Assembly (NCBI GenBank): GCA_050173015.1
Contig: JBFXLE010000001.1
Coordinates: 96,001-160,000, forward strand
Direction of reading: 5' to 3'
From: Calditrichaceae bacterium
GTDB taxonomy: Bacteria > Calditrichota > Calditrichia > Calditrichales > JBFXGD01
Length of the DNA: 64,000 nucleotides
Below, one piece after another: positions 8,838 through 50,644 of this stretch. Within the stretch, counting starts at the first letter, position 1, and each line of letters starts with the position of its first letter. Under the pieces are notes generated by a model that worked only from the letters and a program-made list of their open reading frames with translations, made no database searches and was not told the origin of the DNA. Both the position numbers and the translations under genes were made by a program.

Positions 8838-8887
8838 TATAGGATTATTGGTGTGAATATGATAACCAAATGGTGAAGGAGATCATT

Positions 8888-11800
8888 ATGTTTAAAATAA
8901 ATATTTCTCTCGCAATCGGTTTGATTGCGGGAGTATTTATTCTGATGTCTGCACCGGTTTCAAATGCCGCGGAAAGCAGTAAAGATAAGCATAAAATTGT
9001 TAATATATACAAACCCGGGGCGGATAAATCAACGCGGACACTCTCAAATATATCAAATTGGTCATATTGGATATATCATACAGGAAAATCGGCTCTCGAT
9101 CCCAACGGTAATTCCGGGGGAATATATCCGCGTGGAACGGCGGGCGTGATATTCCAGGATGGTATTGTTTGGGGAGGATATGTCAGGGATCCCGGCACCA
9201 TGATTCCGTTGCGTGTCGGCGGGCAGACATATAATATTGGAACCACACCGGGGTGGATAAAAGAGGATGGGACCGCCGTATCTGCCGATGATCCCAGAGC
9301 AAGGATTTACAGGATACGATCCGACTGGGAAACTCTTACCGTTGAGCAGGTAAGGCAGGATGCAGGCGAACTCAATCAGAAACGCGCGGAGGACGTCACT
9401 GAGACAGAAGCGCAGGCGGTTATTGATCAATATGCCCTTGACTGGAATGAATGGCCGGTCGATTTAGGCGCTCCGGTTGATGAGAACGGAAATCCGGGTA
9501 TCGCGGATGCTGATCAGGTCATCTGGTTTGTTGTAAATGATTTAACGGAAGCGAATACTCTTAATTTGTATGGCTCGCCCCCTATCGGTATCGAACTTCA
9601 GATCACGATGTGGGCTTACAATCAGCCGACTTCTACGCTGGGTCAGTTGCTGTTTAAAAAATTCAAATTTATCAATAGGTCAGGCTTTTTTATCGATTCA
9701 ATGTTTGTCTGCCAGTGGTCAGATCCTGATCTTGGAAGCGCCGCTGATGATCTTGCCGGATGCGATATAGAACGCAGTCTTGGTTATGCTTATAACGGCT
9801 TCAGAACAGATGGGGATTTTACGGCTTTTGGTTTGGCGCCGGCCGCGGTCGGTTATGATTTTTTTCAAGGGCCGATTGTCCAGGGTGTAGCGGGTGAAGA
9901 TAAGAATATGAACGGTATCGATGATGCTGAAGATTCAGCGGTATTTGATCTAAAGCGGAAAGAAGGATTTATTAATTTGCCTATGACGTCCTTCTTTTTC
10001 TTTGCTGCCGGAAGTCCCATTAGTGATCCGGATCTTGGAGACTATGAATCCACAAAAGAGTTCTACAATATGCTGAACGGATTTACACCTACCAATGATT
10101 TGAATAATCCCACACCTTACATAGTGGGGTCCGGAATCTCTAAGGGTGAAGCGACAAAATTTCCTTTGAGCGGCGATCCCTTTTTGGGGACCGGTGATCT
10201 GGACGCGACCGGTGGTAATTTGCCTGCGGGTGACCGGAGACTTGGCCTTGTTTCCGGGCCGTTTACAATGGCGCCCGGTGATACCCAGGAGGTCGTTGTG
10301 GCTGTGGTCGGCGGAATTATATTGCAATCCGGCGGTGATAACCGGAACGCGGTTGCCCAGTTAAAGCTGAATGATGATTTTGCCCAGTTTATATATAATA
10401 ATCTGTTCCAGGGCATTCCAAAGCCACCATCAAATCCTATTGTAAAAACAACACCGCTGGAAAGTAAAATTGTTTTAAACTGGGGGTTTGACACGGCGAG
10501 GGTTCAGGATACAGAACAAGATGATCCCATATTGGGGTTCGACTTCGAAGGGTATAATGTTTATCAATTACCCGGGCCTTCTTCAAGCAAAGACCAGGCT
10601 ACACTGATAGCTACTTTTGATAAAGTGAACGGAATACAGATTATCCGCGCCAAACAGTTTCTGGCATCCTTTGGCGATGTGGTGGAAATTCCGGTACAAA
10701 AGGGCACAGACTCAGGGCTCCAGAGATATTTTGTACTTGAAAAGGACTATATTAACGACGAGCCGTTATATGCCGGAAACACATACTATTTCGCTGTCAC
10801 CGCATATAATTACAACGACGATCCTACGGTTCCCGAACCAACACTGGAATCTCCGCTAAGCGGAATAGCTGTTATCCCGCAACCCACCTTACCCGGCGTT
10901 CGATATGAAGGTTCTCCGGGCGGTGATGTTACGGTAGATCATCCATCGGGTGCAAGTGACGGGATTGTCCATGTATCAGTGATCGATCCGGCTGCCGTGA
11001 ACGGGCATCAGTATAAGGTGTTTTTTACCGAGGACACAGATACCAATTCAGCTACCTTTGGTGAATTGTTCTGGAACGTAATGGATATGACAGATAATAA
11101 GATGGTCGTTGAAAATCAAATTCAGGTAGCGAGTCTGGAAGAAACCCAAACTCAGCCAATATTTGACGGAATCCAGGTCAAGGTTACCGGTCCTGCTCTG
11201 AATTTTAAGAACTTTGAAACGGTGGCAAACGCAAATGGGGTGTTAGATCCTCCGGATGGCGCGGCGGCAGATTTTCAGGATTTTCCATCCTTAAGGCCTT
11301 CTGACGCTCAGCAGGTCGGTGACGGGCATTGGATGATTCATACCGGTGAAGCTCCGGATGGTTCAAGAGGATCGTATAGCGCCTTCATAAGCAGAGTAAC
11401 TCAGAGTGGCGCGCGTTGGCCTCTGATTATTCCGAATGACTTTGAAATACGGTTCAAACCGGGTGGAAAAGGTCTGATTCCGGCAGCGTTTGGTACAGGC
11501 CCTCAGGCGCTTATCGATATGCCGTTCGAATTGTGGAATATCGGTTCGGGTACTCCGGATGATCCCAGTGACGATTACAGACTCTTTCCCTACGTTCTTG
11601 ATGTAGATGAGAACGGCGCGTACAATTTACTGGATCAACCCACACTTGACGGGTTGGGCTTTGGCGACAGAGCGGATCATTCCGCGTCCGGCGCCAATAA
11701 TGATCCATACACCGATTGGTTTTATTGGGTTATCCCGGAAGATGAGAGCCCAGGGGAATCCGGATATAACACGCTTCTATCACAGATTGAAGCGGATGTA

Positions 11801-35711: not shown

Positions 35712-36649
35712 CAGACAACCTTTATTTTTAGAACACGCGGTATCCGGTTTAGATCATTTATAATCTCGATCGTTTTAAAATTGTAGGATTTTGCAATTTG
35801 GATAACCTTTTCGGGTTGTGATCCCGTCATTTCAAAAAAAGCAAATTCGCATCGGGGAGTATTGTCATTCGCCAGGAGGGATATAATCCTTCTGTAGAAC
35901 GATAAGCCGTCATCCTGATCAGTAAGCGCAGTTAACGGTTCATGTTCCTTTACCTCATTTTCAAGCAAATTGATTTCATCTATAGAGATATATGGAGGAT
36001 TGGATACCAACACGGAAGCGCTTTCCGGAAAATGATCCGGCCAGGGTTTAAAGATATCGTGCTCCATAAATTGCATGGCGGACGCGGAATTGTCTCTGAG
36101 CGGTTTGTTGTTTGATTCCGAGATCAGATGAAGATCCGCTGAAATGTTATTGAGCGCGGCGTTTTCCCGGGCGACTTCCAATGCTTTAACTGAAATATCT
36201 GTCGCAAAAACACGGGTCTCGGGCCAAAGCAGTCTGATACTGACCGGTATGCACCCGCTACCGGTGCCGACATCTATTATCACAGGATTGCTGCCATGGT
36301 AATGCTCTTTTAGTTTCAGGATTTCCTCAACCATAATCTCGGTCTCAGGCCTTGGGATCAGCACATCGGGGCTGACTTTAAATGAAAATCCCATAAATCC
36401 CGTTTCACCAAGTATGTATTGCAGCGGCTCATGATTAAGACGACGTTTAATAAAAGCTCTGAAATCTTCAAGCTCGTCCGGCAGAATCGGCCGTTCAAAA
36501 TTCATATACAGTTGAACACGGTTAAAATGGAGGACTTTTCCCAACAATTCCTCGACATTCAGTCGGGCATTTTCTATTTTTTTTTCTTCCAAATATTTTG
36601 TGGTGGTATTTAGAAGATTCAATAAATTCCAGGTCTGTGTTTTGTTCAT
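35711..36649 (-). CDS. prmC: Peptide chain release factor N5-glutamine methyltransferase
   Basis: EPLQYILG, VLIPRPETE, DVGTGSGCI and VSNPPYI. Confidence 0.95.
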   Translation of the reverse strand: MNKTQTWNLLNLLNTTTKYLEEKKIENARLNVEELLGKVLHFNRVQLYMNFERPILPDELEDFRAFIKRRLNHEPLQYILGETGFMGFSFKVSPDVLIPRPETEIMVEEILKLKEHYHGSNPVIIDVGTGSGCIPVSIRLLWPETRVFATDISVKALEVARENAALNNISADLHLISESNNKPLRDNSASAMQFMEHDIFKPWPDHFPESASVLVSNPPYISIDEINLLENEVKEHEPLTALTDQDDGLSFYRRIISLLANDNTPRCEFAFFEMTGSQPEKVIQIAKSYNFKTIEIINDLNRIPRVLKIKVV

Positions 36650-36800
36650 AAGAAATTAAAATATATAATGATTTAATGATCTTTAAAGCAATTATTGTTT
36701 CAATTTTTAATATAGTGAAAATTGTCTGCTAAATATAGTTAAAAATAGGTAAAAAGCTTCCTGATCGGAATTTGCGCCCGGATTTTTCAAATAATTTCTT

Positions 36801-36829
36801 TTGCATTTAATTGAAATAATTATTAAAAT
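36801..36829 (+). promoter_or_regulatory. Sigma70-type promoter of the heme operon
   Basis: TTGCAT (36801-36806), 17-bp spacer, TAAAAT (36824-36829). Confidence 0.6.
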
Positions 36830-36830
36830 C

Positions 36831-36844
36831 TGACTGGTCAGTCA
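36831..36844. promoter_or_regulatory. Palindromic operator at the predicted transcription start (candidate TetR site)
   Basis: TGACTG-GT-CAGTCA, a perfect 6-bp inverted repeat immediately after the -10 box. Confidence 0.65.
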
Positions 36845-36864
36845 TCTTATAATTGAGGAACCAG

Positions 36865-37689
36865 ATGCAGTTTCTAATCAGTTTTATGAACACGATTTTG
36901 CCATTGCTTTATTTCGCGACCACCTTTTTTTATGCCCGGTATTTCTGGCGCGAAGACAGTTCGGCAAAACGATATGTGACGCCGATGCTGCAAATAACCG
37001 TTCTAATCCATTTTATTGATGTTGTAACAAGGGGAATTTATTACAAGCATTTTCCGCTTGCGACAATTTTTGAAGCTTCCACTGTGCTGGCGCTCTCTGT
37101 CGCGGCCATTTACATGTATATTGAATCCCGCATAAAGGAAAAATCAACGGGATATTTTATTCTGGTGTTTGTGTTTTTTATGCAGGTGATCTCATCCGCG
37201 TTTATAGACTTCGTCCATGTGATTCCTGAAATACTTCACGACCGTTTGTTTATTTTTCATACAAGCGCCGCGATCCTCGGATATTCTGCTCTGGCCATAT
37301 CCGCCATTTACGGGTTGATGTATTTGCTGCTGACGCACGACATAAAAAGCAGCCGGTTTGGAGTGATTTACAGTCGTTTACCATCCCTTGAAATTCTTAA
37401 CGAAATGAATCTCAAGGCGGCGACCATCGGTTTCTTTTTTCTCACAATCGCCATTATACTCGGAGAAATTTGGACAAAAAAAATATATGGCACCTTGCTT
37501 CATTTTGATTATAAAATTTTAATTGCAATAATTACGTGGTTTATTTACGGGCTTGAAATCTTCGGCAAAAAGTTTTTCGGCTGGAGCGGAAGGCGGTTAG
37601 CGATTCTGTCACTCAGCGGATTTGCCATTATTATTTTTTCGATGATTGCCGTAAACACGTTTTTATCATCATTTCACAGATTCGATTGA
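36865..37689 (+). CDS. Cytochrome c assembly (CcsA/HemX-like) polytopic membrane protein
   Basis: About eight TM segments, conserved H (FHTSAAILGY), RLPSLE.L, G..W and D.K motifs. Sits directly before hemA. ATG at 36865 follows GAGGA. Confidence 0.85.
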   Translation: MQFLISFMNTILPLLYFATTFFYARYFWREDSSAKRYVTPMLQITVLIHFIDVVTRGIYYKHFPLATIFEASTVLALSVAAIYMYIESRIKEKSTGYFILVFVFFMQVISSAFIDFVHVIPEILHDRLFIFHTSAAILGYSALAISAIYGLMYLLLTHDIKSSRFGVIYSRLPSLEILNEMNLKAATIGFFFLTIAIILGEIWTKKIYGTLLHFDYKILIAIITWFIYGLEIFGKKFFGWSGRRLAILSLSGFAIIIFSMIAVNTFLSSFHRFD

Positions 37690-37696
37690 TTAATTT

Positions 37697-38980
37697 ATGG
37701 AAAAAAATATTTTTCAAATATATCTGCTGGGACTCAGTCACCGCGTAGCAACTGTTGATATTAGGGATCACGCGGCATACGCGGAGAATGACCTTCCCGC
37801 TGCCCTGGAAAAATTATTAAAATGTAACGGGGTAGAGGAAGGATACATCCTGTCAACCTGCAACAGAACGGAAATATATGTGTTGGCCAGGATTTCGCCG
37901 GATGTCCGTTCAACCCTGGAAAACTTTTTAAAAGATACCCGCAAATCATTTGATCCCGGTGATTTTAAGGTGATGTATTTTTATGAAGGCGATGCGGCGA
38001 TCGGGCACCTCTTTAAAGTCGCGGCGGGAATGGATTCAATGATTCTTGGTGAACCCCAGATCCTCGGACAGGTAAAGGATGCTTACAGGATTGCATCAGC
38101 GGCGGGTACAACAAAACTCATTCTAAATCGTCTGCTTAATTTAGCATTTACGGTTGGAAAGCGGGTGCGGACAGAGACTGCTCTGGCGATAGGAGCTGTG
38201 AGTGTGGCCTTTGCCGCTGTGGAGCTCGCGCAAAAGATTTTCAAAGATCTGAATAAACACAAAGTATTATTAATAGGCGCGGGAGAAACCGGTACACTGG
38301 CGGCACAACATCTGATTGAAAAAGGTGTGAAACAACTTTTCATTACCAACAGGACATATGAAAAGGCCGCAAAACTGGCGGACGACTTGACCGGAACAGC
38401 TGTTCCCTTTGATGATATGAATTCGGTTTTACCGGAAGTTGACGTAGTTATCGGGGCAACAAGCGCGCCGGAGTTCATTCTTTCAGAATCAGATATTCGC
38501 GAAATCCAGGGACGTCGGGGTTCCCGTCCGCTCTTCCTTATTGATATCGCGATACCGAGGGATTTTGATCCAAAAATCAATCGGCTTGAAAATGTGTTTT
38601 TAAACGATATGGACGGATTGCAACAAATTGTCGATAAAAATTTGTCTAAACGCAGGCAGGAAATCCCCGAAGCCATGATTATCATCGATCAGGAAATTTC
38701 CAATTTTACCGATTGGAAAAAATCCCTCCGGGTAACGCCGACAATTATAGCTCTGCGCGAAAAACTTGAAGAAATTCGCCGCCTGGAACTTGATAAACAT
38801 AAGCACCGCGTGAGTGATAAAGAATTAGAACAGATGGAACTGATTACCCGCGCGGTAATTAATAAAGTGCTGCATCTGCCTACGGTGCAACTCCGCGGAT
38901 ATAACAACGGACAATTGGAAGGCCTTCTGCGTATAGACGTGGTTAGGGAAATGTTTGGACTGGAGGAAGAACATGAGTAA
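37697..38980 (+). CDS. hemA: Glutamyl-tRNA reductase
   Basis: LSTCNRTEIY, GMDSMILGEPQILGQVK, GKRVRTET, IGAGE and DIAIPRD. Confidence 0.97.
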   Translation: MEKNIFQIYLLGLSHRVATVDIRDHAAYAENDLPAALEKLLKCNGVEEGYILSTCNRTEIYVLARISPDVRSTLENFLKDTRKSFDPGDFKVMYFYEGDAAIGHLFKVAAGMDSMILGEPQILGQVKDAYRIASAAGTTKLILNRLLNLAFTVGKRVRTETALAIGAVSVAFAAVELAQKIFKDLNKHKVLLIGAGETGTLAAQHLIEKGVKQLFITNRTYEKAAKLADDLTGTAVPFDDMNSVLPEVDVVIGATSAPEFILSESDIREIQGRRGSRPLFLIDIAIPRDFDPKINRLENVFLNDMDGLQQIVDKNLSKRRQEIPEAMIIIDQEISNFTDWKKSLRVTPTIIALREKLEEIRRLELDKHKHRVSDKELEQMELITRAVINKVLHLPTVQLRGYNNGQLEGLLRIDVVREMFGLEEEHE

Positions 38981-39908
38981 GAAGGTACGGATCGGAACTC
39001 GAGATAGTGAACTGGCGCTCTGGCAGACGCATTGGGTGCGGAAAAAATTGAAGGAGCTGAATCCGGCGATAACTATTGAAATTATAGAGGTTAAAACCAT
39101 CGGTGATAAAATACTGGATACACCGCTATCTAAAATCGGGGACAAGGGACTTTTTACAAAGGAAATCGACCGGGCTCTGCTTGATAATGAAATAGATTTA
39201 GCGGTGCACAGCATGAAAGATGTGCCCACAACCATACCTGAAGAACTTACAATCGCGGCGATCACCGGACGATGGCATGCAAATGATATTCTGATTTCAA
39301 GGGATAATCTAACGATCGATACACTACCCGAGGGGGCGTCGATCGCGACAGGGAGTCTTCGAAGAAAAGCGCAATTGTTAAATTATCGTAAAGACTTCCG
39401 AATTATCGATCTTAGAGGCAATCTGAATACACGATTCAGAAAGTTTGACGAAGCGGATTGGGACGGTATGGTTCTTGCCCAGGCCGGTGTGGAGCGTTTA
39501 GGATGGCAGGACAGAATATCGGAACGCATTTCATTGAACATTCTTCTCCCGGCCGTCGGTCAGGGAAGTTTTGCGATTATTTGCCGCGAAAATGACCGAG
39601 ATACTAAGAATCTGCTAAAACCGCTGCATGATGATCATTCAGCAGCCGGGATACGCGCTGAAAGAGCCTTGCTGCATAAACTGGAGGGCGGATGTCAGGT
39701 ACCAATCGGGGCATACGGTGAGATTGTTCAGAATCGACTCCGCCTGAAGGCGTGTGTCTCAAGTCTTGACGGCCAGACGCTCATTGAAGATATGGCGGAA
39801 GGCGCGATCAATTTGCCGGAAGAATTAGGTATATCGGTTGCGGAAAAACTGATTTCCATGGGTGGAAAAGAGATATTGGACCGCATCATAATGGAAAACC
39901 GCGCATGA
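38973..39908 (+). CDS. hemC: Hydroxymethylbilane synthase (porphobilinogen deaminase)
   Basis: IGTRDSELALWQ, GLFTKEI, AVHSMKDVP, LRGNLNTR, PAVGQG and LEGGCQVPIG. Confidence 0.97.
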   Translation: MSKKVRIGTRDSELALWQTHWVRKKLKELNPAITIEIIEVKTIGDKILDTPLSKIGDKGLFTKEIDRALLDNEIDLAVHSMKDVPTTIPEELTIAAITGRWHANDILISRDNLTIDTLPEGASIATGSLRRKAQLLNYRKDFRIIDLRGNLNTRFRKFDEADWDGMVLAQAGVERLGWQDRISERISLNILLPAVGQGSFAIICRENDRDTKNLLKPLHDDHSAAGIRAERALLHKLEGGCQVPIGAYGEIVQNRLRLKACVSSLDGQTLIEDMAEGAINLPEELGISVAEKLISMGGKEILDRIIMENRA

Positions 39909-40564
39909 GAAAATCCAATCCACAACTTCATAATGAAAGGCGATGTCAGATCTTGAATATCGCCGAGGAAATGTTCGCCTCGCAGAAATTTCATGAAGTG
40001 CTGATGGATGAGGTGGCGAAAAGGGCAAATATTGCCAAAGGAACCATCTATAATTATTTCAGAAATAAAGAAGAACTTTTTTTATCAATCATAATCAGAA
40101 AGCTGGATAATCTCCTGCATCTGTTATGCGAACGGGTTGATCATAACACGGACGCGCTGACAACGCTTCGCAGGGTGGTCATTCATATGTACAGTTTTTT
40201 GGTAAAATATCCTGATTTTTTTAGAATCTGGTACAGAGAAAAAATCAAATTTTCAGCCGGAAGCGGTGATAAAATTGATCAAATGTATCATCAGATACGG
40301 GAATTAATGGTTCGTACTCTCGAAAGAGGCATTGATGAAGGGATCATTCTTCCGGATCAGAATCTGCTGTTTAAAACAGATCTGATTCTGGGGATCATTG
40401 ACGCGGCGGTAATCAGAGCTCAAAGCCTGGCGGTAGATGAACAGCGCGCTGAAAGAGTGTTGATGTTTGAGTTTATCCTGAATGCGATCGGTACATCGCA
40501 CGCGCTCAGTTTGCATGAAAATGGGGTCGATTTGCCGATAAAAGAGGCGGTGGTGAATGAGTAG
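39905..40564 (+). CDS. TetR/AcrR-family transcriptional regulator embedded in the heme operon
   Basis: HTH: ILNIAEEMF...F...MDEVAKRANIAKGTIYNYFRNKEELF. Overlaps hemC (ATGA) and hemD. Confidence 0.92.
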   Translation: MRKSNPQLHNERRCQILNIAEEMFASQKFHEVLMDEVAKRANIAKGTIYNYFRNKEELFLSIIIRKLDNLLHLLCERVDHNTDALTTLRRVVIHMYSFLVKYPDFFRIWYREKIKFSAGSGDKIDQMYHQIRELMVRTLERGIDEGIILPDQNLLFKTDLILGIIDAAVIRAQSLAVDEQRAERVLMFEFILNAIGTSHALSLHENGVDLPIKEAVVNE

Positions 40565-41360
40565 TTTAAGCGGGAAAAAAATATTAATCTGCCGCGGCAG
40601 GGAGCAATCCCTGGAACTGGAATCGGTGCTTCACGCCAAAGGAGCCGAACCTGTTTTCTTCGCGCCGTTCACCGTGGAAATAATCGATTCGGAGAAAGAA
40701 ATTGCCATCGAACGGGAATTAAAAAATATCACCCGTTATGACCTGATTCTTTTTGGCAGTCCGAACGGGGTGTCCTCTTTCCGCCACTACATGAACAGGT
40801 ATCTTATTTCTGACAAAGTGATGAGCAAAATTGAGGTAGGTATTGTCGGAAACAAAGCGGCTAAGAGATATAAGAAATTGTTCCCGAAAACAGATATTAG
40901 ATATAAAGCCTTAGCGATCAATGATCTCCTGGAAATAGTCAGCAAATCCGGGAACGACAGGAAATTAAACGTATTGAATCCGACCAGTGAACAGTCCCTA
41001 AAAAATATCGAGGTAGAACTCCCTGAAAATATAACTTTAATACGAATTCCCATCTATAAAACAGTGGCAAACACCGAAATAGATGAGAGCAGTATCGCTG
41101 AAATAAATAAATCAAAATTTGATATGGTTGTTTTCAGCAGTCCAAGTTCTTATGATTATTTTGTCGAACAGCTTGGTAAAACCTTCCTGATGTCCGGGAT
41201 TTCAATGGCGGCATTCGGTAAAACAACGGCCGGACACATTCAGAAAAACGGATTTAAAGCGGATGTTGTCCCGGTCAACGCGGAAACAGACAATTTAATT
41301 ATGGCGATGGAATCATTTTTTGACAGGATAAATACGGGTGTAACCACTGCCGGCGGGTAA
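40557..41360 (+). CDS. hemD: Uroporphyrinogen-III synthase
   Basis: LSGKKILICR..Q, LFGSPNGV, IYKT, FSSPS and FGKTTA, plus operon context. Confidence 0.85.
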   Translation: MSSLSGKKILICRGREQSLELESVLHAKGAEPVFFAPFTVEIIDSEKEIAIERELKNITRYDLILFGSPNGVSSFRHYMNRYLISDKVMSKIEVGIVGNKAAKRYKKLFPKTDIRYKALAINDLLEIVSKSGNDRKLNVLNPTSEQSLKNIEVELPENITLIRIPIYKTVANTEIDESSIAEINKSKFDMVVFSSPSSYDYFVEQLGKTFLMSGISMAAFGKTTAGHIQKNGFKADVVPVNAETDNLIMAMESFFDRINTGVTTAGG

Positions 41361-41430
41361 AATACGGCAAATAAATTATCAATAATAAGATATAAACATA
41401 AATTTCGAATGACGGGAGACAGGCATAGTG

Positions 41431-42465
41431 ATGGATGAAAATACAAATCACCTCTTTATAAAGGCATGTTTTGGACAGCGGGTTGAACGCACACCGGTTT
41501 GGATGATGCGGCAGGCGGGCCGTTATTTGCCTGAATACCGGCAGATCCGACAAAAATATAATTTTACCGGTATGTATAAAACACCGGATGTGGCGACCGA
41601 AGTCACTCTTCAGCCGGTGGATATTCTCGGAGTCGACGCCGCCATTCTTTTCTCGGATATTCTGGTGGTTCCCGAAGCGATGGGCATGGAGCTGCATTTT
41701 ATAGAAGAGAAGGGGCCTCAGTTTACGGATCCTCTGCGGTCCGTAAAACAAATACGGCAATTACCGGCAATCCACGCGGAAAGTGAACTCGGATATGTTC
41801 TGCAGGCGATCAGAAATATCAGACAGGAATTGAACAATCGCGTTCCCCTGATCGGATTCAGCGGGGCTCCCTGGACGCTCGCCACTTATATGATCGAAGG
41901 AAGCGGATCCAGAAATTATAAATATATCAAAACACTGCGATTTGGAAATCCGGCCTTATTACATGAATTGCTGGAAAAAGTGACTGTCACGGTTATCGAC
42001 TATTGTAAAGCACAAATTGAAAACGGGGTTCAGGCGGTGCAGTTGTTTGACAGTTGGGCTGGAATGCTTGATGAAGAAGGATTTTACGAATTCGCGCTTC
42101 CCTACGTACAAAGAATCATCAAGGAGATACGTAAACCCGGAGTTCCTGTCATTTACTTTGCTAAAGGGGCAATGGCCTGGCTGGATAAACTAAGTCTTTC
42201 CGGCGCTGATGTCCTGGGACTTGACTGGACAATTGATCCGGTCAGGGCTGTAGAATTAATCAAAAATAAAACCGCTCTGCAGGGAAATCTTGATCCAACG
42301 GCTCTTTACGCGCCACCCGCGGAAATCCACGCGCATGTCAAAAAAATGCTTAAAGGATTTAATGGCGCGGCCGGCCATGTCGCCAATCTGGGACACGGAA
42401 TTTTGCCTGATATACCGGTGGATCACGCGAGGGCATTTATAGACGCGGTAAAAGAAGAAAGCTGA
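41431..42465 (+). CDS. hemE: Uroporphyrinogen decarboxylase
   Basis: PVWMMRQAGRYLPEY, AAILFSDIL, IGFSGAPWTLATY, QLFDSWAG and NLGHGI. Confidence 0.97.
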   Translation: MDENTNHLFIKACFGQRVERTPVWMMRQAGRYLPEYRQIRQKYNFTGMYKTPDVATEVTLQPVDILGVDAAILFSDILVVPEAMGMELHFIEEKGPQFTDPLRSVKQIRQLPAIHAESELGYVLQAIRNIRQELNNRVPLIGFSGAPWTLATYMIEGSGSRNYKYIKTLRFGNPALLHELLEKVTVTVIDYCKAQIENGVQAVQLFDSWAGMLDEEGFYEFALPYVQRIIKEIRKPGVPVIYFAKGAMAWLDKLSLSGADVLGLDWTIDPVRAVELIKNKTALQGNLDPTALYAPPAEIHAHVKKMLKGFNGAAGHVANLGHGILPDIPVDHARAFIDAVKEES

Positions 42466-42529
42466 AATTGCCGGGAATCATTAGTCAGGGACTGATAATC
42501 CGTTTATTTAAATAAAAGAGATTAATATC

Positions 42530-43927
42530 ATGAATAAATCATTAAACTTAGATATCGCGCTCGAGCTTTTGAAGAAATATGATCGTCCGGGTCCGAGATA
42601 TACAAGCTATCCGACAGCTCCCCATTTTCACGAAGGATTCGGATCAAAAGAGTTTGAAGAAGAAATTATACAAACGAACGAGGTTGGTCAGGACGGTGAC
42701 TTATCGCTCTATTTTCATTTGCCGTTTTGTCAATCACTTTGCTATTATTGCGCGTGTAATGTGATAATTACTCACAGCTCAGATCGTAAGGCATCCTATG
42801 TCGAATATTTGAAAAGAGAAATAGACGCTGTGAGCAGCAGAATAAATCCAAACAGAAAAGTCGTTCAGCTCCACTGGGGCGGGGGGACACCCACATATCT
42901 TTCAGCGGAGCAGATCGAAGATATCGCTATGTATATCCGCGACCATTTTAACTTTGCAACCGATGCAGAAGTAAGTATTGAAGTCGATCCAAGAGCTTTG
43001 ACTCCGGCCCATCTGCCGGTTTTGAGAAAGGTAGGATTTAACAGAATCAGCATGGGCGTACAGGATTTTGATCCCAAAGTACAGGAAGCGGTCAACCGGA
43101 TACAGCCGGAAGAGATGACTCGCGGAGTAATTCAGGAAAGCAGGGATCTTGGATTCGATTCGATCAATGTAGATCTGATTTACGGCCTGCCATTTCAAAC
43201 GGTCGATACCTTTGTCAAGTCAGTAGATAAAATTATCAAAATTTCACCGGATCGTTTGGCGGTTTTTAATTATGCCCATGTTCCCTGGATGAAGAAACAT
43301 CAGAACATAATTCAACCGGAAACACTTCCTTCAGCCGGCGAGAAATTGTCAATACTGAAGATGGTTATCGAAAAATTGACAGGCGCCGGATATGTAATGA
43401 TCGGGATGGATCATTTTGCAAAACCGGCTGACGAACTCAGTGTCGCCCTGAAGGAGAAAACGTTATACAGGAATTTCCAGGGATATACTACGCGGGCGGG
43501 CGCGGAAGTTTACGCCATGGGCATCACTTCTATCAGCCAGTTGCACAATGTCTATGCCCAGAATGTAAAGACAACTAAAGAATATGAAGAAATGATTGAC
43601 GATGGAAAGCTTCCCGTTTCTCTGGGGTACCGTCTAAATGATGACGATCAGGTGAGAAGACATGTCATTACAGAACTTATGTGCAATAATGTTGTTGAAA
43701 AAGCGGAGGTGAACAAAAAATATGGAATCGATTTTGACTCCTACTTTGCCGATTCCATAGCACAATTGGACGAGTTTGTAAATGACGGACTTATAAGCCT
43801 GCAGCCGGACCGGATTCAGGTTCATGAAAATGGCCGCCTGGTGGTGAGAAATATCGCCATGGCGTTTGACGCCTATCTGGAAGCTGATCGACAGAAACAA
43901 AAGCCAATTTACTCGAGAACAGTTTAA
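42530..43927 (+). CDS. hemN: Oxygen-independent coproporphyrinogen III oxidase (radical SAM)
   Basis: GPRYTSYPTA, YFHLPFCQSLCYYCAC, HWGGGTP and GMDHF..RNFQGY. These are true HemN rather than HemW signatures. Confidence 0.95.
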   Translation: MNKSLNLDIALELLKKYDRPGPRYTSYPTAPHFHEGFGSKEFEEEIIQTNEVGQDGDLSLYFHLPFCQSLCYYCACNVIITHSSDRKASYVEYLKREIDAVSSRINPNRKVVQLHWGGGTPTYLSAEQIEDIAMYIRDHFNFATDAEVSIEVDPRALTPAHLPVLRKVGFNRISMGVQDFDPKVQEAVNRIQPEEMTRGVIQESRDLGFDSINVDLIYGLPFQTVDTFVKSVDKIIKISPDRLAVFNYAHVPWMKKHQNIIQPETLPSAGEKLSILKMVIEKLTGAGYVMIGMDHFAKPADELSVALKEKTLYRNFQGYTTRAGAEVYAMGITSISQLHNVYAQNVKTTKEYEEMIDDGKLPVSLGYRLNDDDQVRRHVITELMCNNVVEKAEVNKKYGIDFDSYFADSIAQLDEFVNDGLISLQPDRIQVHENGRLVVRNIAMAFDAYLEADRQKQKPIYSRTV

Positions 43928-43943
43928 TCAGGTGGATAAAATT

Positions 43944-45386
43944 ATGCTAAAGAATGAAACGACCGATACTGTCATTGTGGGGGCGGGTATATCGGGTCTT
44001 ACTACGGCGCGCAATTTGGTGAAAAAGGGAATAAAGGTAAAAATTCTCGAAAAAAACAGCGTTGCCGGCGGCTCGATCCGCACAGAGAAAAAAGACGGAT
44101 TCCTGGTTGAATACGGGCCAAACAGCGCGCTCGAAACCACACCGTTGCTCGGTGAGCTCTTCAAAGATCTGAAAATAGATCATCAGATGTTATATGCCAA
44201 TGAAAAATCCAATAATAGATATATTGTGCGCGGCGGGAAGCTTCAGGCCTTACCCATGAAACCGCTGGCTTTTTTAAAAAGCGGTCTTTTTTCGACGCGG
44301 GCAAAATTAAGGCTGTTTAAAGAACCGTTCATCGCGCCATCACCTGCCGAAACCCGTGAAACCCTTGCTCAGTTTGTGGAGCGACGTCTGGGGAAAGAAT
44401 TTCTGGATTACGCGATAGATCCGTTTGTGGCCGGTGTTTTTGCCGGATTACCGGAAAAATTATGCGTTCAGAGCGCGTTTCCAAAGCTTTACGAAGTGGA
44501 ACAAAAATACGGGAGTCTGATAAAAGGGACTATAAGGGGCGCCCGCGAAAGACGGAAAAGTAAAGAAACTTCAAAACAGCGCGCGAAAATGTTTTCATTT
44601 GAAGACGGGTTGCAGACCGTTATTGATGCGCTGGTAAATGAACTTGGAAACAATCTTGTTACTGAATCGCAAATCACGGGAATTTCAAAGATGAAGGATG
44701 GCGGTTACGAAGTTTCTTACCGGAACAGAGAAGAAGAGTTCCTGATCAGGACAAAATCGGTTTTGTTAACCGTGCCCGCTCATGTGTATGAAAAACTTCC
44801 CTTCCATTTTGAAGTGACTCCCGGAGCATTCTTCAAAACAATTCCCTATCCTCCTGTGACAATGGTTTTCTTTGGATACAGGAAAAAACCGGAAAATGTC
44901 AATCTTGACGGATTCGGATTTTTAATACCAAAAAAGGAAAATAAAAACATTCTTGGCTCCATCTGGAGCTCGACCATCTTTCCGAATCGCGCGCCGGAGG
45001 GAGGAGCGGCATTTACGACTTTTGTGGGCGGCAGCCGCCAGCCGGAAAACGCGATGCTGACCGAAGATAAGATTGCCGAAATGGTGGAAGAAGATTTTAA
45101 AAGCCTGATGGGAATAAATCAAAAGCCGGATGTGGTGGTGATTAAAAGATGGGAACAGGCGATTCCTCAATATAATCTTGAGCATATTGAAATGATCGGC
45201 TCGGTTGAAAAATTTGAAAAAAAGAATCCGGGTATGTTCATTTCCGGTAATTTCAGAGGCGGCATCTCGGTAGCCGATTGCGTAAAGCAGGCAGATGCGA
45301 TGAGTTTGACCGTTTCGGAATTTATAAACAGTGAAGTTGATAATATCAATTATCAAAATGTATCAAAAACGGGAACAGATAAATAA
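43944..45386 (+). CDS. hemY: HemY-type FAD-dependent proto-/coproporphyrinogen oxidase
   Basis: VGAGISGL, GG.IRT...GFLVEYGPNS, DPFVAGVFAG, GFGFLIP, AIPQY and GN..GG.SV.DC. Confidence 0.92.
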   Translation: MLKNETTDTVIVGAGISGLTTARNLVKKGIKVKILEKNSVAGGSIRTEKKDGFLVEYGPNSALETTPLLGELFKDLKIDHQMLYANEKSNNRYIVRGGKLQALPMKPLAFLKSGLFSTRAKLRLFKEPFIAPSPAETRETLAQFVERRLGKEFLDYAIDPFVAGVFAGLPEKLCVQSAFPKLYEVEQKYGSLIKGTIRGARERRKSKETSKQRAKMFSFEDGLQTVIDALVNELGNNLVTESQITGISKMKDGGYEVSYRNREEEFLIRTKSVLLTVPAHVYEKLPFHFEVTPGAFFKTIPYPPVTMVFFGYRKKPENVNLDGFGFLIPKKENKNILGSIWSSTIFPNRAPEGGAAFTTFVGGSRQPENAMLTEDKIAEMVEEDFKSLMGINQKPDVVVIKRWEQAIPQYNLEHIEMIGSVEKFEKKNPGMFISGNFRGGISVADCVKQADAMSLTVSEFINSEVDNINYQNVSKTGTDK

Positions 45387-45430
45387 AATTTAAATCGATT
45401 TATTAGCCGAAAAAATATGGAGTACAGACG

Positions 45431-46420
45431 ATGTTCAAACCTTATTACAGACCTCGGCGTCTGCGCAGAAATCCGCAAATACGAAACCTTGTCCGTGAGA
45501 CGATTTTAACACCCGATGATTTGATCTTGCCATTATTTGTTGCCGCGGGTAAAGATATAAAAAAACCGATCAGCAGCATGCCGGGACATTTTCAGCTCTC
45601 ACTTGAACATCTTGTCAGTGAAGTAAAACAGATATGGGATAAAGGAATCCAATCCATTATTTTGTTTGGTATTCCCGAGCACAAAGATGCCTTTGGCACA
45701 GATGCCACCAGTGACGAGGGTATCATAGCGCAAGCGATCAGCGCAGTAAAGAAGGCTGTTCCGGATATGTATGTTATCTCGGATGTCTGTTTTTGTGAAT
45801 ATACCGATCACGGTCACTGCGGAGCGCTCGTGGGACATGATGTTGATAACGATGCCACGTTGGAGATGCTCCAGAAACAAGTGCTGGTTCAGGCGAAGCA
45901 TGGTGTCGATATGGTCGCTCCTTCGGGCATGATGGACGGAATGGTTGGGGCCATCCGTCAGGCGCTGGATGGTGAGGGGTACATCAATATTCCGATTATG
46001 AGCTATGCTGCGAAATACGCGTCCGGATTTTATGGACCGTTCCGTGAAGCGGCGGAATCAACTCCGGCGTTTGGTGACCGCAGCACCTATCAGATGGATC
46101 CTTCAAACGCGGATGAGGCCATGCGTGAAGTCGCGCTCGATGTGGAAGAGGGGGCGGATATTGTCATGGTTAAACCGGCCATGCCTTACCTGGATCTTAT
46201 CCATCGAATCAAAACCGAATTTAGAATGCCCACAGCCGCTTATCAGGTATCCGGTGAATTTGCCATGCTCAAAGCGGCGGCGGAAAAAGGCTGGCTGGAT
46301 CATGATCGCGTGATGATGGAATCACTGACTTCGATTAAGCGCGCAGGCGCGGATATGATTATTACTTATTTCGCCAAAGAAGTGATCGACGCGCTGGAGA
46401 AGAAGAAAAGTGGGAAGTAA
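45431..46420 (+). CDS. hemB: Porphobilinogen synthase (ALA dehydratase, Zn-type)
   Basis: [38 protein letters not shown] and [10 protein letters not shown]. Confidence 0.97.
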
Positions 46421-46448
46421 GAAGTAGGAAGTAAGAAGTAGGAAGTAA
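46414..46448 (+). repeat. Heptamer tandem repeat (GAAGTAR)x5 starting at the hemB stop codon
   Basis: GAAGTAA/GAAGTAG units, followed by AAAAAGA-type low-complexity units. Confidence 0.9.
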
Positions 46449-46615
46449 GAAGTTTAAGAAAAAAGATAAAAGAAAAAAGAAAAAAGAAAAAAGAGTGAAG
46501 AGTAGGGGCGTCTGAATCCGGGCAGGCGATGTCATAGTCAACCGCGGTGAAACCGGTTAATCTACCCGTATGTCATGCCGCAGGCATCTTTGGCTACCTT
46601 GGAAGGATGTAGAAC

Positions 46616-46639
46616 GTAGGGACAAGGCATGCCTTGTCC
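46616..46639 (+). repeat. GTAG-type REP-like palindrome
   Basis: GTAG followed by the perfect 20-bp palindrome GGACAAGGCATGCCTTGTCC. Confidence 0.7.
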
Positions 46640-46641
46640 GG

Positions 46642-46760
46642 GAAGTAGGAAGTAAGAAGTAAGAAGTAGGAAGTAAGAAGTAGGAAGTAAGAAGTAAGAA
46701 GTAGGAAGTAAGAAGTAGGAAGTAAGAAGTAAGAAGTAAGAAGTAAGAAGTAAGAATTAA
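46642..46760 (+). repeat. Heptamer tandem repeat (GAAGTAR)x16 plus one degenerate unit
   Basis: Counted directly from the sequence. Confidence 0.92.
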
Positions 46761-46794
46761 AGAGCGTTAAGAGAAAAGAGTGTAAGAGTTAAGA

Positions 46795-46817
46795 GTAGGG
46801 GCGCGATGCTCGCGCCC
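46795..46817 (+). repeat. GTAG-type REP-like palindrome
   Basis: GTAG-GGGCGCGA-tgc-TCGCGCCC. Confidence 0.65.
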
Positions 46818-46969
46818 AAGAAAAAGAGATAAGAAAAGAAGATTCAACTTTTGTGTTGTTGAAATCTTCGGGGAGATAATTTAACAGTTATCTAATGCTG
46901 GAATTTTGATCAGATTTTGATTGCTGGCAAACAGTCTTTGGAAAATATAATGTAATAACGGAGTTTTGC

Positions 46970-48259
46970 ATGTTATCACAGGATAAAAGTAAAAAATTAT
47001 TTGAAAGATCACAAAAAGTTACTCCCGGCGGGGTAAATTCACCTGTCCGCGCGTTCAAATCGGTGGAAGGAACTCCCGTTTATTTTTCTCACGGGAAAGG
47101 GTCCCACACGTTTGATGTTGATGGCAATGACTATATTGATTATGTGGGATCGTGGGGTCCGCTTATTGTAGGATACTCACACCCGCGAATTATTTCGGCC
47201 TTAAAAGAAGAAGCTGAGAAGGCGACTAGTTTTGGAGCGCCGACCGAGCTGGAAATTGAACTGGCGGAACTCATCACAGAGATAATGCCTTCTGTTGAAA
47301 TGGTACGAATGGTAAACTCGGGTACGGAAGCCACAATGAGCGCTGTCCGTTTAGCAAGGGGATATACGGGGCGTCATAAAATTATTAAATTCAGTGGCTG
47401 CTACCATGGGCACAGCGACAGTTTTCTTATTCAGGCCGGATCGGGAATGACGACACTCGGCACACCTAATAGTCCCGGGGTGACTCCTTCTACAGCCGAG
47501 GACACGTTGATCGCTCGATACAATGATCTGGGTTCTGTTAAGGAATGGATTTCAAAGTTTCCGGATCAGATCGCGGCAATCATTGTGGAACCTGTGGCGG
47601 GTAATATGGGCGTTATTCCTCCGGTGGAGGGTTTTCTTGAGGGTTTACGCAAGGTGACAACTGATAACGGGATAGTGCTAATTTTTGATGAAGTGATGAC
47701 CGGTTTCAGGGTGGCCAGAGGCGGCGCTCAGGAGGTTTATAACATAAAGCCGGATTTGACAACTCTTGGTAAAATCATCGGAGGTGGAATGCCGGTGGGC
47801 GCCTATGGCGGTAAAAAAGAAATTATGGAGCAGATATCACCGGCCGGTCCCGTCTATCAGGCCGGTACACTATCCGGAAATCCGCTTGCAATGAGAGCCG
47901 GTTTGGAAACGTTAAGGATTCTAAACGAGCCCGGTTTCTATGAGACGCTGGAGGAAAAGGCAAAATTATTAGACAACGGGATCCGTGAAAATCTAAAACG
48001 TCTAGGAATGCCATTATATCAGACCAGAGTTGGTTCCATGGGTTGCCTGTTTTTTAATACTGAAATAGTGCATGATTATGATAGCGCCGTACGATCGAAT
48101 ACAAAAAAATACGCGAAATACTTCTGGAATATGCTGGAAGAAGGGGTGTACCTGGCGCCTTCACAGTTTGAAGCGTTCTTCATCTCCGCGGCGCATTCGC
48201 AAAATGATATTCAAAAAACCATCGAAGCAAACTACCGCGCGTTAAAAAAAGTGATTTAG
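46970..48259 (+). CDS. hemL: Glutamate-1-semialdehyde 2,1-aminomutase
   Basis: [54 protein letters not shown] and [10 protein letters not shown]. Confidence 0.97.
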
Positions 48260-48325
48260 GGATTTGTTGCTCAAAAATGTATTATTAGCATCAAAATAGC
48301 TATGCATTAAATACCCTGATATTTG

Positions 48326-48362
48326 AAACCGTTGGCTGCCTGGACAGTCAGCGGTTTTTTTT
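48326..48362 (+). terminator. Intrinsic terminator ending the heme cluster
   Basis: AAACCGTTGGCTG..CAGTCAGCGGTTT stem (with G-U pairs) followed by a T-tract. Confidence 0.75.
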
Positions 48363-48475
48363 GAATCGCGTAATAAGGTATTTGTTAAAGTTAAAAAAAT
48401 AAATTGCAAAAGAGCGGCATTTTTTTAAAATTACGCTTCGACTTTGATTTACTGAAACAATATACAGAGGATGAT

Positions 48476-50644
48476 ATGACTGATTCGGAAATGCTTCAAT
48501 TAATAGCCGGGGAACTGGAACTAAACCTTATCCAGGTAAAAAATACGGTGGAATTATTAGACACAGGGAATACGGTTCCATTCATTTCACGATACCGTAA
48601 AGAAGTCACCGGTTCACTGGATGAAAATCAGATACGTGATATTGAAGAGCGAATTCAATATTTAAGAGCTTTAGAAGCGCGAAAAGAAACGATCCTTAAA
48701 TCTATCGATGAGCAGGGAAAACTTACTCCGGAGTTAAAGGGAAAGATATTAAAGGCCCTGAAGTTGCAGGAAGTGGAAGATCTTTATCTGCCCTATAAGC
48801 CAAAGAAAAGAACACGCGCGACCGTTGCCAGGGAGAAGGGACTTCAACCGTTAGCGGATATGATACTAAATCAGGAAATCATTTCGGGCATTCCGGAAGA
48901 TTACGCCGCGCAGTACGTTAATCCCGATAAAGAAGTGAACACTGCCGAAGATGCCTTGAACGGGGCAATGGATATAGTCGCGGAAACGGTAAGTGATGAC
49001 GCCGATGTGCGAAAAGTAACCCGGAAAATCACATTTGATGACGGGTTGATTATTGTCGAAGGTAAAAAGATGCAGGAACGCACGCCATATGAGATGTATT
49101 ATGATTATTCCGAAGCTGTTTCAAAGATTCCACCGCATAGGATTCTGGCCATCAATCGGGGCGAAACAGAGGGAATTTTAAAAGTTTCATTCGATGTTCA
49201 GATAGAAAGAATAACGTCTGAAATCGAACACCTGTATATCAAAAATAAGGCGTCTATTTTTACGGAGCAGCTGAGTTTGGCCATAAAGGACAGCTACAAT
49301 CGCCTGGTGGCTCCTTCCATTTTTCGTGAAGTCCGGACGGCTTTGACTGAAAAAGCGGATGAACACGCGATTAGCGTATTTGCCACTAATTTAAAAAATC
49401 TGTTATTACAGCCGCCTGTGAGGGGAAAAATGATTATGGGGATCGATCCCGGTTTCAGGACCGGATCAAAGGTTGCCGTAATTGACAAAACCGGAAAATA
49501 TCTGGAAGGTACAACCATTTATCCTCATCCGCCGCAGCAGAAGTATTTTGAAGCAAAATCAACGGTTAGAAGTCTTGTCAATAAATATGGTGTCGATATC
49601 ATAGCTATCGGTAATGGAACGGCCAGCCGTGAGACGGAGCAGATGATTGCAGATGTCATTGCTGAAATGAAAGACGAAAAGAAGCTGTCATATATCATCG
49701 TCAGTGAAGCGGGAGCATCGGTCTATTCCGCTTCAAAGGTTGCTCAGGAAGAATTTCCTGATCTTGAAGCCAGCATGCGCGGAAATATTTCCATTGCCCG
49801 GCGATTGCTTGATCCGCTGGCAGAACTCGTAAAAATTGATCCGAAAAGCATCGGGGTCGGACTTTATCAGCATGATGTAAACCAGAGAAAACTGGCACAT
49901 ACATTGGGTCAGGTTGTTGAGTCAGGAGTGAATTCAGTCGGCGTGAATCTCAATACCGCTTCCGCATCCCTCTTAAGATATGTTTCGGGACTTACGAGCA
50001 GGACGGCTGAAAACATTGTAAAACACCGTGATAATAATGGCCCGTTCAGAGATAGAAGTGAGTTGAAGACCGTGGATGGGATTGGCGCCGTCGCGTTTGA
50101 ACAGGCCGCGGGATTTTTACGTATTCCCGATGGTGATAACTCACTGGACAATACTTCCATACACCCTGAATCATATAATGCCACAAAAATGATGCTCCAA
50201 AAATTCCAGATTTCGGACATAAGGGAGGAAGGCAAGAAGCTCAGATCTAAAATCAATAGCGAAAAAATAGAATTATCTGATTTGCTTGCAGAGCTTGGAA
50301 TCGGTGAGCCGACGTTCAGAGATATCCTTCTAAATCTGGAAAAACCCGGCCTGGATCCTCGTGACGAGATGCCCAAGCCGATACTTAAAAGCGATGTTTT
50401 AAAAATGGAAGATCTCAAAGAAGGAATGGTTCTTAAAGGGACGGTTCGCAATGTTGTTGATTTTGGGGCGTTTGTCGATATTGGCGTCAAACAGGATGGA
50501 CTGGTTCATATCAGCCGCATGGCCAAGCGCTATGTAAAAAATCCCATGGAAGTGTTGGCCGTGGGTGATGTAATAGATGTGAAGGTGGTGTCTATCGACT
50601 TTGAACGGGGTCGCATCGGGTTGACAACGGTCCTGGAAGATTAA
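48476..50644 (+). CDS. tex: Tex-family RNA-binding transcriptional accessory protein
   Basis: TVPFISRYRKEVTG, EDLYLPYK.KKRTRA, GIDPGFRTGSK, GNGTASRE, DPKSIGVG.YQHDV and an S1 domain. ATG at 48476 follows GAGG. Confidence 0.95.
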   Translation: MTDSEMLQLIAGELELNLIQVKNTVELLDTGNTVPFISRYRKEVTGSLDENQIRDIEERIQYLRALEARKETILKSIDEQGKLTPELKGKILKALKLQEVEDLYLPYKPKKRTRATVAREKGLQPLADMILNQEIISGIPEDYAAQYVNPDKEVNTAEDALNGAMDIVAETVSDDADVRKVTRKITFDDGLIIVEGKKMQERTPYEMYYDYSEAVSKIPPHRILAINRGETEGILKVSFDVQIERITSEIEHLYIKNKASIFTEQLSLAIKDSYNRLVAPSIFREVRTALTEKADEHAISVFATNLKNLLLQPPVRGKMIMGIDPGFRTGSKVAVIDKTGKYLEGTTIYPHPPQQKYFEAKSTVRSLVNKYGVDIIAIGNGTASRETEQMIADVIAEMKDEKKLSYIIVSEAGASVYSASKVAQEEFPDLEASMRGNISIARRLLDPLAELVKIDPKSIGVGLYQHDVNQRKLAHTLGQVVESGVNSVGVNLNTASASLLRYVSGLTSRTAENIVKHRDNNGPFRDRSELKTVDGIGAVAFEQAAGFLRIPDGDNSLDNTSIHPESYNATKMMLQKFQISDIREEGKKLRSKINSEKIELSDLLAELGIGEPTFRDILLNLEKPGLDPRDEMPKPILKSDVLKMEDLKEGMVLKGTVRNVVDFGAFVDIGVKQDGLVHISRMAKRYVKNPMEVLAVGDVIDVKVVSIDFERGRIGLTTVLED

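Follow-up and report, generated by a model that had tools for sequence, protein, structure and literature searches.

A probable TetR-family regulator of heme biosynthesis operons in Calditrichota and Ignavibacteria, its predicted operator and its pairing or fusion with HemD

Heme-sensing repressors of the TetR family are described from Lactococcus (HrtR), Enterococcus (FhtR) and C. difficile (HatR), with short palindromic operators (15 nt; two 14-nt repeats) (PMC10368836). The known regulators of bacterial heme synthesis are Irr, HbrL, those of the HrrSA type and PerR/Fur. Irr of Bradyrhizobium senses heme while bound to ferrochelatase, and HbrL of Rhodobacter, with heme, represses hem promoters (PMC11442138). 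In the reviews read, TetR-family heme sensors are given only as regulators of heme efflux, and a 2026 review of heme biosynthesis places regulation outside its stated coverage. Here we analyze a TetR-family gene that lies inside a heme biosynthesis operon of a Calditrichaceae bacterium (assembly GCA_050173015.1, contig JBFXLE010000001.1, positions 96,001 to 160,000). The window is this whole stretch of 64,000 nucleotides, and coordinates count from its first letter. The comparison points to a TetR subfamily of hem operons in two poorly studied phyla, in part of whose members regulator and enzyme are naturally fused; its operator and a regulon of one operon are predicted. In the literature searched, subscription-only papers excepted, we found neither a TetR within a hem operon nor a fusion of TetR with HemD described, and the passages found in the Ignavibacterium album genome paper mention neither.

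Five features are listed first. The regulator and hemD are separate genes here (the split form) and are joined in most of the Ignavibacteria loci. Genes were taken from a list of open reading frames (ORFs) and identified by Pfam and NCBIfam profile matches.

36801-36806, + strand: -35-like hexamer TTGCAT, read from the sequence
36824-36829, + strand: -10-like hexamer TAAAAT, after a 17-nt spacer from TTGCAT
36831-36844, unstranded: predicted TetR operator TGACTGGTCAGTCA, a TGAC-N6-GTCA inverted repeat, one base after TAAAAT
39905-40564, + strand: TetR-family regulator, 219 aa (P0001), split form; PF00440, 1.8e-14
40557-41360, + strand: hemD, uroporphyrinogen-III synthase; PF02602, 3.8e-32, 111.7 bits vs cut-off 27.5

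The protein has two features of the TetR/AcrR family, a TetR_N domain (PF00440, residues 16-61, 53.6 bits vs cut-off 24) and an all-helical fold of 9-10 helices. Its AlphaFold2 model is all-helical with 10 helices (predicted local distance difference test, pLDDT, 89.2; predicted template modelling score, pTM, 0.82). Of the 500 PDB matches counted for the model, 497 have E<=0.001, and those listed are TetR-family regulators.

Close relatives of the protein were found almost exclusively among hem genes. Among 41 related genomes, an orthologue occurs only in the same genus (94% identity) and in one genome of another order (49%), and all other TetR matches there are at or below about 35% identity. 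The word-index protein search found 5 relatives only, and the fuller set comes from a HMMER search and locus scans. Scanning species-representative genomes gave 80 loci, of which 5 belong to Calditrichota and 75 to Ignavibacteria-type metagenome-assembled genomes. In every one of the 80 the TetR relative lies in a group of hem genes of the same orientation; 78 have hemC just upstream, and in the remaining two the TetR gene is where the contig begins. From a metagenome scan that used other short family members as seeds came 80 further loci, 76 with a hem neighbour and four on contigs of 1.3-1.7 kb. The two seed alignments represent one family (hhalign probability 100%, E 3e-77). Searched with HMMER against 1.84 billion representatives, the family gave 39 clusters at E<=1e-30, vs 62,877 generic TetR matches at <=0.001. 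The gene is present in 11 of 86 genomes and 3 of 8 families of the phylum Calditrichota, in 78 of 121 sampled genomes of one Ignavibacteria family (nearly all as open frames of 460-500 aa), and in 17 of 201 of the class to which that family belongs. By sequence comparison, the TetR protein is a member of an undescribed subfamily that is confined to hem operons and sits next to hemD.

The pairing with hemD is regular too: hemD comes directly after the TetR gene wherever the contig continues. In the window the TetR gene shares 4 bp (ATGA) with hemC and 8 bp with hemD, and across the six split genome loci tested the tetR/hemD overlap runs from 8 to 53 bp. The split form in the window is translationally coupled to hemD. 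The tetR/hemD junction shows no indel in independent metagenome contigs, of which X2 covers the whole stretch and record 11 of X6 covers 40225-40665; the split is therefore not an assembly frameshift. The gene at 40557-41360 is the single HEM4 match in the source genome (G000, 97.5% complete), so it should be the working enzyme, and catalytic-type invariant residues are kept in 27 HemD sequences.

Ignavibacteria carry the same pair as one chain of about 465 aa, in open frames of about 460-480 aa that contain TetR_N, the TetR C-terminal domain and HEM4. Of the complete frames, 65 of 75 from genome loci and 52 of 58 from metagenome loci are fused (at least 455 aa, with TetR_N and HEM4). Calditrichota account for 5 of the others, and the rest are a few split forms of higher GC and some that are probably frameshifts. 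In one fusion (L039) TetR_N spans residues 13-57 and HEM4 residues 221-449 (E 1.1e-47); the TetR part ends near residue 198 and HemD starts near residue 208. In the fusion model the HemD part matches solved uroporphyrinogen-III synthases (template modelling score, TM, 0.77-0.80), and no PDB entry covers both the TetR and HemD parts. In the source databases the fused proteins carry nothing more specific than the labels 'uroporphyrinogen-III synthase' or 'TetR family transcriptional regulator'. Neither the obligatory pairing with hemD nor the fusion of the two was part of the earlier, sequence-only reading of this DNA.

In a maximum-likelihood tree with a midpoint root only, the fused proteins form one clade (support 100/97). 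The split proteins of Calditrichota form one group (89/96), and the other stand-alone members fall outside the fused clade. With the split forms placed outside that clade, the fusion is probably derived and the split state seen in the window ancestral, as far as a midpoint root can indicate. The split Calditrichota proteins also carry a C-terminal extension (residues 195-211) that is not in the fused proteins. Its residues G196, T197, A200, H204, G207, D209 and P211 are invariant in 7 sequences, and an extra helix at residues 198-205 is modelled with confidence.

As the sequence-only reading had noticed, a palindrome stands one base after TTGCAT-17-TAAAAT (36801-36844), and it covers the predicted transcription start. 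The exact 14-mer TGACTGGTCAGTCA occurs once in the window, and TGACTG-NN-CAGTCA once in the 4,336,749-bp genome vs about 0.2 copies by chance (composition estimate). In a contig of one metagenome run, a population variant (X5) has T>C at 36838, in the palindrome centre, with both arms intact.

Sites were counted in the 66 loci with upstream sequence, within 120 nt ahead of the first operon gene. An exact TGAC-N6-GTCA is present in 34 of the 66, and a site with at most one mismatch in 49. Site density is 4.29/kb in these upstream regions vs 0.013/kb in the remaining 1.14 Mb of the same loci, an enrichment of about 330-fold. The 14-mer starts 1 nt after the -10 position in all nine of the TetR-bearing Calditrichota promoters examined. 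When seven of these promoters were aligned (mean identity 54%), 16 columns were invariant, 10 of them in the operator (36831-36836 and 36841-36844, out of 14 positions) and 3 in the -10 hexamer (36824, 36828 and 36829). A TTG motif stands at the aligned -35 position in 6 of the 7, L034 being the exception. On the protein side, the 30 family members compared all have the recognition-helix motif AKG..YNYF unchanged, in keeping with a TGAC half-site that is itself conserved.

In Calditrichota the sequence of most sites is TGACTGACTGGTCAGT; two split forms from other lineages have GAACTGACCGGTCAGTTC and GAACTGACTGGTCAGTAC, and from these readings the element can also be viewed as a pair of overlapping 14-mers. 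Two sites are present in Ignavibacteria: the distal one is (T/A)GACY-N4-RGTCA with TTTG after it, and the proximal one abuts a TAtTTTTG box, its left arm merging with the box. The distance between them is mostly 44 or 52 nt. In promoters of the Bacteroidetes type, TTTG is the -33 element and TAnnTTTG the -7 element. If these elements hold here, the site has the same position, directly past the -10/-7 element, in two promoter architectures.

The site goes with the regulator. The Calditrichota hem operons without TetR that were compared have ccsA-hemA-hemC and then hemD where detectable. None of their 23 usable promoters has a site with at most one mismatch within 120 nt, the nearest lying at -144, and in TetR-less genomes of the Ignavibacteria family none of 4 usable promoters rises above 5 of 8 arm matches. 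The sequence-only reading had suggested looking for the palindrome upstream of related hem operons that contain the TetR: TGAC-N6-GTCA is kept at the same promoter position where the TetR gene is present and is lacking in relatives that do not have it. Dedicated TetR control of the heme operon, with the palindrome as its likely operator, thus gains comparative support.

Two TetR-less Calditrichota of one genus have a different element, two copies of TyACGACyTTGTCA upstream of ccsA-hemA (L123, at about 229 and 429; L125, at about 86 and 133), which may be the site of a different regulator.

In the source genome, loose TGAC-N6-GTCA occurs 72 times vs about 59 expected. TGACY-N4-RGTCA has 14 sites, among which the hem site alone is intergenic. 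The regulon is probably the hem operon alone, judging from these site positions. A wider regulon was considered and set aside, the 13 other sites all being non-intergenic, with candidate C11 inside a 115-aa ORF.

The remaining members of the operon are listed below. Its ten co-directional ORFs run in the order ccsA-like/hemA/hemC/tetR/hemD/hemE/hemN/hemY/hemB/hemL (36853-48259, + strand). The cluster order and both overlaps of the TetR gene are as the sequence-only reading had them. The nine neighbours of the TetR gene are the CcsA-family gene and hem enzymes by Pfam and NCBIfam, with no transporter gene in the operon.

36853-37689, + strand: CcsA-family membrane protein gene, first gene of the operon; PF01578, 1.8e-26
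37697-38980, + strand: hemA, glutamyl-tRNA reductase; TIGR01035, 7e-131
38955-39908, + strand: hemC, hydroxymethylbilane synthase; TIGR00212, 3.5e-106
41428-42465, + strand: hemE, uroporphyrinogen decarboxylase; TIGR01464, 1.4e-130
42530-43927, + strand: hemN, oxygen-independent coproporphyrinogen III oxidase; TIGR00538, 2.8e-190
43866-45386, + strand: hemY, protoporphyrinogen oxidase; TIGR00562, 2.4e-100
45431-46420, + strand: hemB, porphobilinogen synthase; NF006762, 1.1e-154
46970-48259, + strand: hemL, glutamate-1-semialdehyde aminomutase; TIGR00713, 1.9e-191
48325-48358, + strand: terminator-like hairpin after hemL, a 14-pair stem followed by a T run

The CcsA-family gene probably starts at the in-frame ATG at 36865 and not at the TTG at 36853 chosen by the ORF finder, because GAGGA (36855-36859) stands ahead of that ATG. 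This start leaves a leader of only about 25-30 nt past the predicted transcription start. A leader hairpin or riboswitch was considered and dropped: RNA 36825-36900 folds at the level of shuffled sequence (z = 0.09), and Rfam gave no match at E<=0.1 in 36000-48800.

The spacer between hemB and hemL is 550 bp long and rich in repeats. From 46400 to 46760 it has purine-rich tandem arrays around a GC-rich unique segment: the 7-mer GAAGTAA in 5.7 copies at 46414-46453 and 17 copies at 46642-46760, and AAGAAAA in 5.6 copies at 46456-46494. A promoter-like CTGGCA-16-TATAAT stands at 46924-46951, ahead of hemL, and hemL may be driven by its own promoter.

Other operons of the family vary in content. 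In 42 of the 73 loci with a hemC match, all Ignavibacteria-type (L039:9352-9963 and 41 others), an extra gene of about 203 aa lies between hemC and tetR-hemD. Its product is lipoprotein-like, with no Pfam match, and its Atlas cluster is 'peptidase propeptide/YPEB (PepSY-like)' (score 0.97). In the Ignavibacterium locus L058, at 7600-11400, tetR-hemD comes after a partial hemC match, and that partial match overlaps with a 455-aa ORF of the opposite strand. Among the 41 relatives, hemA is unmatched in 14. With the query used, it is unmatched in all five TetR-less genomes of one family, f5 (G071, G077, G079, G082 and G084, 90-98% complete), a hint that TetR absence there goes with operon absence. 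Heme synthesis may be missing in much of Calditrichota.

From its sequence the TetR protein leans toward FadR. The nearest solved relatives are FadR/YsiA (3e-27 and 9.4e-27; PDB 1vi0, 3whb/3whc and 5gp9), and in structural comparison the TetR part of the fusion model matches FadR at TM 0.81-0.83. The best NCBIfam match is Bacillus FadR (NF053878), at 67.2 bits vs a cut-off of 200; it is therefore not a FadR. HrtR was not among the best 60 of the 187 PDB sequence matches. The sequence-only reading had argued for heme or porphyrin sensing from three motifs rich in His, Met, Tyr and Cys: HLLCERVDH, IHMYS and MYHQ. All three are present, and of these only IH.YS (H94, Y96) is conserved, in at least 90% of 30 family members; neither the MYHQ motif nor the His and Cys of HLLCERVDH are constant, even in the 7 closest relatives. 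With nearest solved relatives that are acyl-CoA binders, that argument is not supported. Other conserved positions in the 30 members are F98, K101, Y102, F105, F106, E112, R171 and R184. The sequence has no CP motif.

Altogether the comparison suggests that the TetR protein is, with good probability, an autoregulated repressor of the operon that encodes it. The reading follows from the overlap of the site with the predicted transcription start and from TetR-family precedent, and the same two points favour repression over activation. A TetR dimer would bind TGAC-N6-GTCA at 36831-36844, and the occupied site would block RNA polymerase, which would lower transcription of the genes from the ccsA-like gene through hemA, hemC, tetR, hemD, hemE, hemN and hemY to hemB, and probably of hemL too. 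The signal would most likely be a metabolite of the tetrapyrrole pathway, sensed at the step of HemD or close to it. That the pairing with HemD is invariant suggests either sensing at the hydroxymethylbilane/uroporphyrinogen step or HemD being within the sensor.

Several points weigh against this account. The -35/-10 assignment is a consensus match only, and such matches are common here: 33 promoter-like sites were counted in 12.2 kb vs 23.8 expected from shuffles, so the match alone is not significant. Among the sequencing runs, none of RNA was listed as holding 36500-41500. The predicted operator and repression draw their support from comparison, and the compared genomes are kin, so that the counts overstate independence. 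The window has one site vs two in Ignavibacteria. The threshold of 6 of 8 arm positions, applied in reading these sites, is lenient (by estimate about 0.5 chance matches per 130 nt); the exact and one-mismatch counts are relied on instead. In a complete Ignavibacterium chromosome (L058) the locus of tetR-hemD looks rearranged: its 20.6 kb have no ccsA or hemA match and no operator-like site better than one mismatch. The AlphaFold2 monomer of the fusion has confident domains, a low-confidence linker and a pTM of 0.51, and gives no support for a fixed TetR-HemD interface. A complex prediction of 2 TetR and 1 HemD (alignments A2 and A3) scored 0.00 vs a mark of 0.32, a result that does not bear on binding either way. 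TetR repressors usually let go of DNA when the ligand binds; if that holds here, heme or another end product would produce positive feedback.

What signal the regulator reads can be answered in three ways. A tentative answer is that TetR works with HemD as a 'trigger enzyme', in a complex here and in one chain in Ignavibacteria, and that DNA binding depends on whether the enzyme is free or loaded with hydroxymethylbilane or uroporphyrinogen III. Operon output would then track flux at the point where unprocessed hydroxymethylbilane becomes dead-end uroporphyrinogen I. The constant hemD neighbour, the gene overlaps, the frequency of fusion, the status of hemD as the only HEM4 gene of the genome, its kept catalytic-type residues and the fold of the HemD part all speak for it, and Irr docked on ferrochelatase is a precedent (PMC11442138). 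Against it, co-expression of two adjacent genes would be enough to fix a fusion, the fusion model predicts no confident packing between the domains, and a fusion that is probably derived, with split forms outside its clade, is not required for function. It is doubtful that TetR and HemD make up one sensing machine in which HemD occupancy or conformation is passed to the DNA-binding domain, through a complex in Calditrichota and covalently in Ignavibacteria. If that were true, the hem operon would be tuned to flux at the hydroxymethylbilane step and uroporphyrinogen I avoided; no TetR coupled to an enzyme, and no transcriptional control of heme synthesis with its reading taken at HemD, would have come before it. 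A second answer, in line with the sequence-only reading, is a TetR of the HrtR/FhtR/HatR kind, aimed at synthesis and binding heme or a porphyrin in its C-terminal pocket through His/Tyr. Conserved H94 and Y96 could serve, with K101, R171 and R184 pairing with the propionates; heme-binding TetRs exist (His72/His149 in HrtR, residue 132 in FhtR; PMC10368836, PMC11442138), and HbrL shows heme acting as a co-repressor of hem genes (PMC11442138). Release by heme as in HrtR would mean positive feedback and runaway synthesis; heme as the ligand would have to act as a co-repressor, as reported for HbrL. Given also the variable HLLCERVDH and MYHQ residues, the lack of a CP motif and the affinity to FadR/YsiA (3e-27, 9e-27) and not HrtR, we consider heme binding rather unlikely.

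That affinity is what favours a signal from outside the pathway, an acyl-CoA as in the FadR-like relatives or a redox or respiration cue, to whose state heme synthesis would be coupled. Bacillus FadR is the best NCBIfam match and FadR/YsiA the best PDB match, with the fold agreeing, but the FadR score is far below its cut-off, and an exclusive hem context with a HemD fusion is hard to explain by an unrelated signal; we hold this improbable. The palindrome itself could belong to something other than TetR, as a chance palindrome, a leader RNA hairpin or the site of another factor. The operator is assigned by comparison, and L058 bears the TetR gene and shows no site. The site nevertheless co-occurs with the TetR gene across two phyla and is absent in TetR-less relatives, its arms alone are conserved while the centre varies, and the leader neither folds better than shuffles nor matches Rfam, which makes this very improbable. 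The autoregulated repressor of the hem operon, responding most likely to a pathway metabolite, is the account that we prefer.

The prediction offers a testable system for how anaerobes and facultative anaerobes of the Fibrobacteres-Chlorobi-Bacteroidetes (FCB) group set tetrapyrrole flux, and Ignavibacterium album is cultivable (PMC3362086). The regulator may also serve as a compact metabolite-responsive switch for porphyrin pathway engineering.

With HrtR, FhtR and HatR the regulator shares the TetR family and a short promoter palindrome, ahead of an operon that relates to heme and encodes the regulator itself (PMC10368836). Those proteins control heme efflux pumps and are released by heme, whereas here the target is a biosynthetic operon with no transporter gene. 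The sequence affinity of the window TetR is FadR-like, which sets it apart from them. Bacillus subtilis FadR (YsiA) and the acyl-CoA-binding TetRs are closest by sequence and by fold (TM up to 0.83), yet the protein is below the FadR family cut-off and its context is heme synthesis, not fatty-acid degradation. Irr and HbrL are likewise transcription factors dedicated to hem genes, but they belong to the Fur and LysR families, and the partner enzyme of Irr is ferrochelatase, the last step, and not HemD. To our knowledge neither has a covalent enzyme fusion. PutA, BirA and NadR are enzyme-repressor fusions that hold a DNA-binding domain and an enzyme of the regulated pathway in one polypeptide. 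The Ignavibacteria TetR-HemD protein likewise joins a DNA-binding domain to a pathway enzyme; its folds and pathway differ from theirs, and control of DNA binding by the state of HemD is a proposal made here. The fold and the repressor-operator logic are ordinary; the novelty lies in which pathway is targeted, in the exclusive operon context and in the fusion with an enzyme.

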